From positions 1 through 37,711 of the forward strand of contig NBMH01000001.1 in the NCBI GenBank assembly GCA_002084875.1: a stretch of 37,711 nucleotides of DNA. Reading direction: 5' to 3'. Positions within the stretch are counted from its first letter, which is position 1; each line of letters begins with the position of its first letter. The DNA comes from Anaerolineaceae bacterium 4572_78 (GTDB lineage Bacteria > Chloroflexota > Anaerolineae > 4572-78). The translations under genes were made by a program, and so were the position numbers. Below, in pieces: positions 1-35,700 of the stretch. The notes below the pieces were generated by a model, which did no database searches, had not been told where the DNA came from, and was given only the letters and a program-made list of their open reading frames with translations.

Positions 1-242
1 ATTTCGTACCTCAATCTTATCCATGGGGTATTGTTTTTAACAGAATATGTAGAGATTTATGGTATAAATCCTACACGATGATAAGACATGTGTCCCATAT
101 TCCTGCCATGTTCTACCTGAAAAAATAGCATTGAACAGCTCTGAATAGTAAGGGCGTACGCCCGTACGCCCTTACAACTGGCATTGAACAGCCCTGGTAG
201 GGTGAACGGTTACGTTCCGTTTTACGGATTGTTTTCCTGAAT

Positions 243-3159: not shown

Positions 3160-3308
3160 AATTACCTCACTATTCGCATGGTAGTATAGCTGAATAGCAT
3201 GATTTGGCAAATTTACAAAGCACAAAGCAAATTTGCTAAATCCTACAAAATATGTATTATGTAGAAAAGATGAATATGAGTCCTTGACTCATATAAGGTA
3301 ATAGTCAA

Positions 3309-3337
3309 ACAAGAAAGGTTTTTAAAACCTTTCTTAT
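3309..3337. repeat. Copy 1 of a dispersed palindromic element (consensus GACAAGAAAGGTTTTTAAAACCTTTCTTGTC)
   Basis: This is a near-perfect inverted repeat AAGAAAGGTTTTT/AAAACCTTTCTT in the divergent intergenic region between the ZIP gene and the GT4 gene. The same unit recurs at 6156-6188 and 22760-22790, each preceded by tAGTCa. Confidence 0.7.
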
Positions 3338-3369
3338 TTTAACCATAATAGGTTCTAGTTAGACATACC

Positions 3370-6145: not shown

Positions 6146-6155
6146 TCACATAGTC

Positions 6156-6188
6156 AGACAAGAAAGGTTTTTAAAAACCTGTGTTGTC
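6156..6188. repeat. Copy 2 of the palindromic element (GACAAGAAAGGTTTTTAAAAACCTGTGTTGTC), between the GMC oxidoreductase and the ALDH gene
   Basis: It is an imperfect inverted repeat of the same unit as at 3309-3337 and 22760-22790. It may also act as an intercistronic hairpin. Confidence 0.65.
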
Positions 6189-6206
6189 TTTAAGAAAAGG
6201 AGAAAA

Positions 6207-8679: not shown

Positions 8680-8926
8680 CCGCTCCCCCATCTCTAACTA
8701 GTTGTAGGGGCGGCCATACGCCCTTACTATTAGGGTTGTTCAAAGCTTGCTTTGACATGAAAAAGCAAGCTTTTTCGCTCCATTGTGCGACCACATGGTT
8801 GAAAATCATGTCGAAAAATATCCCAAGCCATGTTTTTTATTTAGCATTAAACAGCCCTACCACCTCTAACCCCTCCCCACATGGAGAGGGATTAGGGGGC
8901 GTGGAGGTGAACTGTTTGGCTATGGA
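8680..8926. repeat. Composite intergenic repeat region between convergent genes. It contains a GGGCG/CGCCC palindrome, the hairpin AAAGCTTGCTTT-gacatgaa-AAAGCAAGCTTT, a GCATTAAACAGCCC box and a G-rich tail ending GGAGGTGAAC
   Basis: Modules of this region recur at 100-215, 14620-14730, 18031-18056, 19262-19312, 24283-24362, 28735-28862 and 35641-35660. The copy at 28745-28860 is collinear with this one, except for a 33-nt insertion here (ttgtgcgaccacatggttgaaaatcatgtcgaa). Confidence 0.7.
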
Positions 8927-19261: not shown

Positions 19262-19312
19262 AACAATCTCCACCATTCCTCCCTTTGAAGGGAGGGGTTG
19301 GGAATGGGATTT
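19262..19312. repeat. Intergenic repeat: hairpin CCTCCCTT-tga-AGGGAGG followed by GGTTGGGAATGGG
   Basis: It is a member of the G-rich dispersed repeat family seen in other intergenic regions of this window. Confidence 0.5.
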
Positions 19313-19326
19313 TACACTGAAAACCA

Positions 19327-19971: not shown

Positions 19972-20162
19972 TGAGTTTTTCTACTCAAACAAATCAATGG
20001 TTGCACAAATTGAATCAGTTTTTAAAACCTATCCAATCTCAAATTTCTGTAACCATAGACAGTCAACCACCCAACCTAAAGGGATTGGGTTTTATGGACT
20101 TTTTTCATAACGATTAAGTTTTTGTTAATATTTATGTTATCCAAATCATTTAAGGAGAAAAA

Positions 20163-22723: not shown

Positions 22724-22759
22724 GTTTACCTGTAGACTTTTTTTATACCTACAGTCTAA

Positions 22760-22790
22760 GACAAGAAAGGTTTTAAAAACCTTTCTTGTC
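22760..22790. repeat. Copy 3 of the palindromic element (GACAAGAAAGGTTTTAAAAACCTTTCTTGTC), a perfect 12-bp stem between holA and its upstream gene
   Basis: It is a perfect inverted repeat, the same unit as at 3309-3337 and 6156-6188. Confidence 0.75.
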
Positions 22791-22803
22791 TGTCCATTGT
22801 CTT

Positions 22804-24282: not shown

Positions 24283-24362
24283 GTACTACAACCCCCCATC
24301 CCATTCCCATGCGAGGAGAATCCCCCTCCACATAGGGAAGGGGTTAGGGATAGTGAAACGCG
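24283..24362. repeat. Intergenic G/C-rich repeat (CCCCCCATCCCATTCCCATGCGAGGAGAATCCCCCTCCACATAGGGAAGGGGTTAGGGATAGTGAAACG)
   Basis: It shares the ...GGGGTTAGGGATAGTGAAACG tail with 28838-28860 (GGGGAGTGGTGATGGTGAAACG) and with other ...GGTGAAC-terminated copies. Confidence 0.55.
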
Positions 24363-27693: not shown

Positions 27694-28703
27694 ATGTACC
27701 TGGCACCATTAAACTACGACCGTTTTTTCAAGAAAGTTTTTCCGATACACGTATCGCTCAACAATTTTTGGAGGACTTTTTGGAAGTTACCATTACAGAG
27801 CTCAAACCACTGTCTAAAGAACATTATGTAACAGATGATTCCTCGCGGGTTGAGTTCGATTTTCGTTGTAAAATTGAAGGACGGCATGTCATCGTTGATA
27901 TGCAACAATGGTACAAGTCTGATATTGTACAACGTTTTTATCTTTATCATGCTTTGAACACAGGTTTACAACTGGAGACCTTGCCCGAAAAACGATTGAT
28001 TTTTGATAAGGAAACGCAATTACTCAAACAAGTCAAAGATTATCGTTATGTTGAACCAGTATTGACCTTGATTTGGTTGGTTAGTGAAACTTTAGGCTTT
28101 GAGGATAATTATGTTAGTTTCACCATGGCACCTGAACTGGTGCTAAATTTTTTGAAAAATGAACACTTGTGGCACAATACTGAAATAAAGGATTTATTAA
28201 CCGAACGCAAACATATTTTATCTTTGGTAAATAATACTACCAAATACCTTGATTTTCTATCCCAAAATCGGTTAATATTTCTCATTCAAAGAAATATCGT
28301 CAAGCATCAAAAAGGCATGGTTTATGAACGCTGGTTCCATTTTGCCGAAAAGAGCCGTAACCTAGAAAATGTGGAGTCTGATTTTGATGAGTTTCGGAAT
28401 GATACCATCTTTGATGAGATGATGAGAAGGTTATCAAAAAAAGGCTTAGCAGATGAAGATTTAGTCTACATTGCCAGCGAGTCAGAGGTACGAGCCGAAA
28501 TGGCTCGTTGGGAACAAGGATATTTTGAGGATGGTTATAGGGACGGTTACAATTCAGGTCAAATCAAAGGTCATGCCGAAGGTCATGTCAAAGGAGAGCA
28601 TAATAAAGCTATTCAAATTGCGGATAGCTTGCGAAAAAGGTGCATGTCGCTTGATGAAATTGCGGATATAACAGGACTCAGCCCGACCGAAATTATGGCA
28701 TAA
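27694..28703 (+). CDS. Rpn-family PD-(D/E)xK nuclease (TIGR01784-type 'putative transposase'); N-terminal 16 codons are in a different frame from the body (frameshift at the T5 run 27737-27741)
   Basis: A strong RBS AGGAGG sits 7 nt before ATG 27694. That ATG encodes MYLAPLNYDRFFKKVF, the conserved family N-terminus (...DYAFKKLF). The main frame continues SDTRIAQQFLEDFL...VEFDFRCKIEGRHVIVDMQQW (family E/D...E-x-Q core). One additional T in the run would make the product contiguous. The track ORF 27540..28703 has a spurious N-extension overlapping the kinase gene. Confidence 0.6.
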
Positions 28704-28734
28704 ACCCCTACCATGCTATTTTGTGACAAGATAA

Positions 28735-28862
28735 ATTGGAGCGTCAAAGCTTGCTTTGACATGAAAAAGCAAGCTTTTTCGCTCCATAAATATCCCAAGC
28801 CATGTTTTTTGTTTTAGCATTAAACAGCCCTAATTGTAGGGGAGTGGTGATGGTGAAACGTT
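28735..28862. repeat. Composite intergenic repeat (hairpin AAAGCTTGCTTT-gacatgaa-AAAGCAAGCTTT, GCATTAAACAGCCC box, GGGGAGTGGTGATGGTGAAACG tail); collinear copy of 8735-8920
   Basis: It is near-identical over ~90 nt with 8738-8862 but lacks the 33-nt insertion found in that copy. Confidence 0.7.
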
Positions 28863-33314: not shown

Positions 33315-33625
33315 AAATGTAATAGACCTCCAAGTGCCAGTTATACCAAAAAAGGGTTAGTTTTGTGAATACCATAAGCGGGTTTATGCCATAAACCCCT
33401 ACATTAACACTGTTCACAAATGTAGGGGTTTGTGGTACAAACCACATGGTTTAAAATTACAATTCTTACCCTTAGCAATATCTTCATGAAAATATCTCGT
33501 ATTATCTAAAAATATTATAGCATGTTTCGCCTAAACGCCAAAATTGGTTCGTTATTTTGGTATGTGATTCATGATTTCTAGTTTGGCAATTCATGTTTTT
33601 GTATTAAAAAAAATTTAGTCTAAGT

Positions 33626-35628: not shown

Positions 35629-35700
35629 GAGTTTGGAGGGACAAAGCTTGCTTTGTCATGTCATATTTTCAAACTTCCAAAATTATACACGGAGAAAATC

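Follow-up and report, generated by a model that had tools for sequence, protein, structure and literature searches.

The intergenic region at 8680-8926 of the window, by which we mean the whole 37,711-nt stretch of contig NBMH01000001.1 (Anaerolineaceae bacterium 4572_78) analyzed here, contains a hairpin and short boxes that recur elsewhere in the same contig, and it raises the question of whether such a repeat is a small non-coding RNA, a mobile miniature element, or another kind of intergenic structure. The region is a true mosaic, and we consider it probable that it is a REP/REPIN/BIME-like mosaic of repetitive extragenic palindromes. As such it would be a new REP/REPIN-like family and a feature that is real yet ordinary, its single unusual point being that unrelated bacteria from lakes and sludge have the same 23-nt unit.

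An earlier note on this DNA described a modular family of intergenic repeats, and the counts bear this out. The 12-mer AAAGCTTGCTTT was identified 5 times (8742+, 8762-, 28746+, 28766-, and 35643+) against 0.48 expected, a number that 0 of 100 shuffles reached, and GCATTRAACAGC was found as an exact match 4 times (128, 181, 8844, and 28817) against 0.43 expected. Intergenic DNA makes up 9% of the window, and every window copy falls there. The 2 fullest copies are identical over 44 nt (8740-8783 versus 28744-28787) and 95.6% identical over a further 45 nt (8816-8859 versus 28788-28832); with only 2 copies, an identity of 95-100% points to recent copying rather than conservation. Their collinearity, given in the earlier note as 8738-8862 and 28745-28860, holds up to 8859 and 28832, beyond which the copies diverge, and the insertion reported in copy 1 is present with a length of 32 nt (8784-8815) instead of 33 and has no counterpart in copy 2. 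Partial copies, which had been reported at the window start and after iorA, were located at 123-196 and 35635-35657. Immediately upstream of the window there is an additional inverted box (8283-8302 of L168, from the related assembly GCA_029932075.1), bringing the total for this organism to 3 unit sites and 5 boxes in approximately 46 kb (the window plus 8.3 kb upstream), and the available strains are identical at the repeat locus. That all copies lie downstream of gene 3' ends is true yet uninformative, as 3 of the 4 sites also lie 5' of the following gene. The features are as follows.

123 to 143, minus strand: copy of the box (reverse complement CAGAGCTGTTCAATGCTATTT), a truncated unit in which a degenerate head is joined to the left half of the stem
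148 to 175, unstranded: palindrome GTAAGGGCGTACGCCCGTACGCCCTTAC, a GC-rich REP of the GTAGGG...CCCTAC type that resembles the REPs flanking the RAYT gene of lake-metagenome contig L155
176 to 196, minus strand: copy of the box (reverse complement CAGGGCTGTTCAATGCCAGTT); a further hairpin headed by GTAGGG, GTAGGGTGAACGG..., follows at 197
8704 to 8727, plus strand: GTAGGGGCGGCCATACGCCCTTAC, a GTAGGG-headed GC-rich REP hairpin that matches GTAGGGGCGGC..., a REP of L155, exactly over its first 11 nt
8729 to 8756, plus strand: left unit of the copy 1 doublet, with head TTAGGGTTG, no GAGC, and then the self-complementary hairpin TCAAAGC-TT-GCTTTGA
8759 to 8781, minus strand: right unit of the copy 1 doublet, the minus strand reading GGAGCGAAAAAGCTTGCTTTTTC, self-complementary via 2 compensated pairs
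8784 to 8815, plus strand: 32-nt extra hairpin module of copy 1 only, sharing 16 of 17 nt with positions 33441-33457, a part of the 137-nt element
8816 to 8838, plus strand: spacer module AAATATCCCAAGCCATGTTTTTT, common to copy 2
8839 to 8859, minus strand: box of copy 1, reverse complement TAGGGCTGTTTAATGCTAAAT, a truncated unit; the G at 8860 completes GTAGGG
8860 to 8909, unstranded: G/C-rich hairpin CCACCTCTAACCCCTCCCC-ACAT-GGAGAGGGATTAGGGGGCGTGGAGGTG, a member of a separate intergenic hairpin family
28738 to 28760, plus strand: left unit of copy 2, identical to the consensus across taxa, GGAGCGTCAAAGCTTGCTTTGAC
28763 to 28785, minus strand: right unit of copy 2, GGAGCGAAAAAGCTTGCTTTTTC, convergent with the left unit in a tight doublet (spacer of 2 nt)
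28788 to 28812, plus strand: spacer module of copy 2, common to copy 1
28813 to 28832, minus strand: box of copy 2, reverse complement TAGGGCTGTTTAATGCTAAA, followed by GTAGGGGAGTGG at 28836
35635 to 35657, plus strand: solo unit GGAGGGACAAAGCTTGCTTTGTC with A-T at pair 7-22, inside the 73-nt iorA-iorB spacer

Using the hairpin arm as a query against public genomes and metagenomes, we identified the conserved entity as the 23-nt unit GGAGCGTCAAAGCTTGCTTTGAC, which consists of GGAGCG and a self-complementary GTCAAAGC-TT-GCTTTGAC (the last 18 nt) with the apex GCTTGC. The doublet core is formed by 2 inverted copies of this unit, each self-complementary. All copy and locus numbers from these scans are lower bounds and refer to the matches listed; among them we collected 269 oriented copies and aligned their 69 distinct variants. 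In these variants, 94.4% of the cells of the intra-unit stem were paired and both partners changed in 6 of the 8 pairs. The covariation score was reached by 0 of 500 shuffles, and the signal collapsed in slid controls. Across the copies, pair 7-22 was found in all 4 Watson-Crick forms, TA (159), AT (42), CG (35), and GC (12), while pair 13-16 changed from CG to TA in 21 copies and pair 6-23 from GC to AT. The compensatory changes that the earlier note had proposed looking for are therefore present, yet this covariation is equally expected for an RNA, for DNA hairpins read by a transposase, or for palindrome-templated mutation; it cannot separate these, so the test does not discriminate between an RNA and a DNA function.

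As a free single strand, copy 2 is predicted to fold optimally into the long inter-unit stem (-30.6 versus -12.7 kcal/mol). The window right arms, GGAGCGAAAAAGCTTGCTTTTTC, keep the intra-unit stem by 2 compensated pairs that create mismatches to the left arm, and identical arms were found in only 22 of 99 distinct doublets, most of which combine different 7-22 pairs. Because the arms of a doublet usually differ and the intra-unit stem is kept, the conserved hairpin of the earlier note survives as a small covarying hairpin within the 23-nt unit and not as the long "AAAGCTTGCTTT...AAAGCAAGCTTT hairpin," which is better described as 2 adjacent convergent self-complementary units.

The GCATTRAACAGCCCTA box, which reads TAGGGCTGTT(C/T)AATGC on the opposite strand, aligns to the head and left half stem of units from other taxa with a sole gap of 4 nt, as in the L130 unit CCTAGGGCTG-GAGC-GTCAAAGCT, and the left arm of copy 1, TTAGGGTTG-TTCAAAGCTTGCTTTGAC, is an intermediate form in which the hairpin is complete and GAGC is absent. 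The boxes are thus truncated units, and the modules distinguished by the earlier note belong to 1 family; the box at 8839-8859 and the sequence at 8729-8747 make up an imperfect inverted repeat of 17 nt. A second type, the GC-rich GTAGGG...CCCTAC REPs, is represented by the hairpin at 8704-8727 and the "GGGCGTACGCCC palindrome" (148-175), and GTAGGG itself was counted 15 times in the window against 8 expected, with 8 of the 15 intergenic. The window organism alone has the G-rich hairpin at 8860-8909, the spacer, and the 32-nt insert, and the tail and box modules are likewise confined to it, leaving the 23-nt unit as the only module shared elsewhere.

Further hairpin families were observed in the same contig. 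A 137-nt dispersed element is present twice (window 33342-33478 and L168 3897-4033, 96.5% identity) and includes 2 GTAGGGG-headed REPs arranged head to head as a doublet, GGTTTATGCCATAAACCCCTACATT / AATGTAGGGGTTTGTGGTACAAACC. At window 28690-28712, the same REP occurs singly and overlaps a stop codon. The separate family to which 8860-8909 belongs, CCCTCC-loop-GGAGGG followed by (G)TTAGGG or TTGGG, was recognized by eye in intergenic DNA also at 14655-14725, 19280-19320, and 24290-24355. A repeated hairpin, (ATAGTCARAC)AAGAAAGGTTTTTAAAACCTTTCTT, was identified in 4 intergenic regions (3301-3342, 6150-6189, 22753-22797, and 20018-20042), and these hairpins are possibly bidirectional terminators.

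In other genomes and lake metagenomes, we identified at least 260 unit copies, and the 23-mer was present at no fewer than 160 other loci, including at least 120 lake and other metagenome contigs. Named carriers of GGAGCGTCAAAGCTTGCTTTGAC were a Methylococcaceae MAG (at least 5 contigs), a betaproteobacterial MAG, and at least 3 Anaerolineae/Anaerolineales MAGs. Among the matches listed, clusters were predominantly convergent doublets ("+-," 67) and singlets (36), with 9 each of "++-" and "+--" and a few larger arrays, and "-+" was found only 4 times among adjacent-unit pairs and never as a cluster alone. Start-to-start spacing peaked at 24, 35, 51, 56, and 63 nt, tandem extras lay 26-36 nt apart, and the spacers often contained a third small hairpin with the same apex, e.g., GCGAAGCTTGCTTCGC. 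Although approximately 76% of the sampled DNA is ORF, 96 of 102 clusters were outside long ORFs, and the 62 clusters whose intergenic type could be classified (10 convergent, 8 divergent, and 44 tandem) followed baseline proportions. Several Fibrobacter MAGs (L006, L029, L030, L039, and L041) carried a repeat of their own, GCGTCGCGACAAAGCTTGCTTTGGCATGACCGAG, with the CAAAGCTTGCTTTG core and different flanks.

No protein travels with the repeat in the loci analyzed. The 150 nearest genes matched 226 Pfam families, none occurring more than 4 times and, among those listed, none a transposase; no transposase recurred, and all-versus-all clustering of ORFs within 400 nt of repeats returned only housekeeping genes or spurious repeat-spanning ORFs. 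A 174-aa ORF bracketed by repeats in L010 had no match to the RAYT queries. Direct-repeat lengths at 69 doublet flanks equaled those of the shuffled control, giving no target-site duplication at these flanks. Viral contigs yielded zero matches to the unit and box patterns and the plasmid collection none, so these 2 collections do not support a phage or plasmid origin. A literature search with the exact core sequence returned no papers.

These properties can be set against several known classes of intergenic repeat. Correia/NEMIS, ERIC, RUP, and BOX elements are non-coding intergenic sequences of approximately 50-150 nt with inverted ends that can fold in mRNA and affect its stability; each has a defined full-length consensus, and some have target duplications, e.g., TA for Correia. 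The window elements are likewise intergenic, approximately 50-150 nt long, and inverted at their ends, but only a unit of 23-30 nt is shared between sites, its context varies, and no target duplication was found.

In Pseudomonas fluorescens SBW25, Bertels and Rainey described REP groups with the cores GGGGGCTTGCCCCC, GCGGGCTTGCCCCGC, and GGGAGCTTGCTCCC, which share a GCTTGC center, each group adjoining its own RAYT; 93% of the doublets were inverted pairs able to form hairpins in single-stranded DNA or mRNA, and the doublets were extragenic, with characteristic spacings, tandem clusters, and common compensatory changes, while singlets were viewed as defunct remnants (PMC3116915). The unit described here has the same GCTTGC palindrome center (here CAAAGCTTGCTTTG) and shares with SBW25 the prevalence of convergent inverted doublets, the preferred spacings, the tandem clusters, the extragenic location, the compensatory changes, and singlets as remnants. 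It differs in its A/T-rich stem, in window doublet spacers of 0-2 nt against 71 or 110 bp in SBW25, and in being common to Chloroflexota and Proteobacteria in identical form, unlike the lineage-specific SBW25 REPs. Sequence overlap with the SBW25 cores (Table 1, PMC3116915) is limited to the GCTTGC center, extending to AGCTTGCT with group GIII, and since the stems differ, these 6-8 shared bases may be convergent.

In E. coli, REP/BIME mosaics are mobilized by the RAYT TnpA-REP, as presented by Ton-Hoang, Messing, and colleagues (PMC3479197). The window region resembles a BIME in alternating palindromic units with other short conserved motifs between them, in the systematic difference between the 2 units of a pair (as in the E. 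coli Y and Z units), and in a conserved 5' head beside the hairpin, which is GTAG in E. coli and (G/Y)TAGGG in the window. A further likeness is that this part of the window contains GC-rich REPs headed by GTAGGG, similar to those flanking the L155 RAYT. The GGAGCG unit has no sequence similarity to the E. coli REP, and its head lies 9-10 nt from the stem and is only approximately 40-55% conserved.

Taken structurally, the copies correspond to REPs and REPINs: the unit is an imperfect palindrome in the range of approximately 20-40 nt, it is extragenic, and it occurs as inverted doublets with preferred spacing, as singlets, and in tandem clusters. A pairing-constrained unit, convergent doublets, arrays, decayed copies, and extragenic sites were all observed directly, along with the lack of target duplication and of a cis-encoded protein in the loci analyzed. 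Lineage-specific, mostly vertical inheritance, which characterizes REPs and REPINs, was not what we found, the identical 23-mer being present across phyla. The mobile miniature element considered in the earlier note fits, specifically in the form of REP/REPIN/BIME-like palindromic repeats. The basic unit would comprise approximately 30 nt, with the head YTAGGRYT followed by GGAGCG and the 18-nt self-complementary stem, and 2 convergent units would form a REPIN-like doublet (28738-28785 and 8734-8781). The solo unit at 35635-35657 and the truncated units would be decay products, and GTAGGG-headed GC-rich REPs and other small hairpins would be interleaved with them in the fashion of E. coli BIMEs.

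Knowledge of REP-RAYT systems (PMC3116915, PMC3337134, and PMC3479197) suggests how such a mosaic may arise. The units would fold into single-stranded DNA hairpins recognized together with the 5' head, and a tyrosine transposase of the RAYT type probably copies them in trans; this single-copy HUH/Y1 enzyme (RAYT), encoded elsewhere, would place them at new intergenic sites and leave no target-site duplication. If transcribed within a 3' or intercistronic mRNA, a doublet would form a stable stem of approximately -30 kcal/mol, and E. coli REPs have been implicated in mRNA turnover (PMC3479197). By this analogy, a secondary effect on mRNA is plausible, in which the repeats could protect upstream mRNA or modulate read-through, with the iorA-iorB solo unit and the 3'-region doublets as candidates.

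We searched approximately 1 Mb of fetched loci for such an enzyme with an E. coli RayT sequence, which was approximate and used as a lead only, and with Pfam Y1_Tnp for confirmation. One RAYT was identified, a 149-aa protein at 7820-8266 of L155 (lake-metagenome contig Ga0194049_1000061; Y1_Tnp, E = 3.8e-14). The GGAGCG unit is present on the same contig, but the RAYT gene is flanked by GTAGGGTGGCCTTCAGGCCACC REPs and not by that unit, and the approximately 1 Mb searched yielded no RAYT with the GGAGCG unit at its flanks. L155 also carries GTAGGGGCGGC... REPs, and the REP type flanking the RAYT matches the window modules at 8704-8727 and 148-175. Within L155 7740-8400, 2 GTAGGGTGGCCTTCAGGCC REPs were observed upstream of the RAYT, and downstream of it lie the REP in inverted orientation and a tandem array of 9 repeats of 12 nt, GGGCCACCCTAC. 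A second weak RAYT match, in L136, turned out to be a translated tandem REP array. At 1150-1395 of L136, a period of 48 nt is repeated 5 times in tandem (CTACTGCGTAACAAGGACTGTAGGGCGGCAACCCTTTGCCGCCAA), and the TGCGTAAC module of this array also flanks many GGAGCG doublets on lake contigs, suggesting that modules are shared between the 2 REP types.

Other explanations account for part of these observations. Under one of them, the composite at 8730-8860 and 28736-28832, which comprises the doublet, the 45-nt tail, and the box, would be the gene of a small non-coding RNA or an RNA structure acting in cis as a regulator. In its favor are the folding of the 247-nt region, which is far better than that of shuffles on both strands (z = -5.8 and -4.1), the near identity of the 2 window copies, and the covarying small stem. 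The small RNA that the earlier note considered plausible is nevertheless not supported: at the Rfam 15 gathering threshold tRNA-Leu alone matched in the window, permissive Rfam scans of both loci gave only miRNA-like hairpins of at most 23.5 bits against cut-offs of at least 43, and promoter-like and terminator-like sites were at chance level. Moreover, the tail and box modules are restricted to the window organism, unit copy number, spacing, and module order vary between sites, the doublets are strand-symmetric, clusters elsewhere lie between divergent, convergent, and tandem genes at baseline proportions, and G-U pairs are not enriched among departures from the stem (10 of 41). We therefore regard an RNA as unlikely. 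Rho-independent, possibly bidirectional, terminators of similar sequence would share the stable stems (-30.6 kcal/mol for copy 2) and the position after genes in the window, and T-runs follow some copies elsewhere (L018). The window stems, however, have no T-run, a terminator scan called no unit hairpin at either locus, and the consensus 3' flank of the doublet is CGCTCCA rather than a T-run. With 8 of 62 classifiable clusters elsewhere lying between divergent genes, 1 window copy inside the iorAB operon, and an exact 23-mer identity across phyla that would not be expected of terminators, this is the explanation we hold to be the most improbable.

Two further readings treat the repeat as DNA, as the REP/REPIN/BIME-like reading does. 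A classical MITE, i.e., a deletion derivative of an IS moved by a DDE transposase binding terminal inverted repeats, would agree with the inverted termini (TAGGGTTGTTCAAAGC / GCATTAAACAGCCCTA in copy 1 and GATGTTACGC / GCGTAACATC in lake variants), the size of 50-150 nt, and the assemblies that break at the element (L046), yet target-site duplication did not exceed the shuffled control, no unit pair encloses a transposase-sized ORF, and no recurrent transposase lies nearby. Head-to-tail tandem extras and variable spacing are not MITE-like either, and the self-complementarity of each unit covaries, for which a terminal repeat in double-stranded DNA has no need, making a MITE distinctly improbable. 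Slightly lower still we place double-stranded sites for a dimeric nucleoid-associated or regulatory protein, or signatures of the DNA-uptake type. The 12-14 bp core CAAAGC-TT-GCTTTG is nearly invariant across taxa and units occur in arrays, as do some binding sites; against this, positions 6-7/22-23 flank the invariant core and yet covary, with all 4 Watson-Crick pairs represented, which argues that the bases pair and are not read out individually. Relative to GGAGCG, the polarity of the central TT/AA is fixed, and units also lie between convergent genes where nothing is regulated, e.g., window copy 1. In contrast to the GGAGCG unit, uptake sequences mostly lie within genes and are specific to a lineage. 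Readings as attC/integron, CRISPR, IS200/IS605-end, or uptake sequences were dropped on sequence alone, the core motifs, regular spacing, or direct-repeat end orientation being missing.

Under the preferred REP/REPIN/BIME-like reading, the distribution across phyla is the point that departs from precedent, as REPIN-RAYT systems are described as specific to a lineage and passed on mostly by vertical inheritance (10.1101/2022.05.22.493013). We identified the identical 23-mer, preceded by a similar head (TTAGGGTTG), in Chloroflexota (the window organism and Anaerolineae MAGs) and in the Methylococcaceae and betaproteobacterial MAGs. The HtpX of the betaproteobacterial MAG carrying the 23-mer is of proteobacterial type, and the named best matches of the window Lon protease were exclusively Caldilineae, Anaerolineae, and Chloroflexota (52-58% identity), with the nearest relatives at only approximately 57%. 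We tentatively suggest that the GGAGCG-GTCAAAGCTTGCTTTGAC unit with its YTAGGRYT head may be a REPIN-like system that was transferred horizontally among phyla living in the same lake and sludge habitats, together with or served by a transferable RAYT-like enzyme. If true, it would be an exception to the view of REPIN-RAYT systems as vertically inherited, lineage-specific genome symbionts, and a 23-mer shared through horizontal REPIN-RAYT transfer would bear on how "domesticated" such systems are. The collection of at least 260 copies, with four-way covariation at 1 stem position, would be useful for inferring what the cognate enzyme recognizes. For annotation, the repeats explain unusually structured intergenic regions and assembly breaks in an uncultured Chloroflexota genome, and they serve as a warning that such hairpins should not be called small RNAs or terminators.

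Two observations concern the genes of the contig. A 1218-aa ORF (window 8927-12583, minus strand) adjoins the repeat region; it has no Pfam match and is 1214 aa long in related assemblies. At window 1188/1189, 65 nt are absent relative to the otherwise 99.9%-identical GCA_029932075.1 (L168 9502-9566), splitting a FAD_binding_4 gene (437 aa in L168) into ORFs at 300-1214 and 1174-1560, and this absence is either a strain deletion producing a pseudogene or an assembly error.
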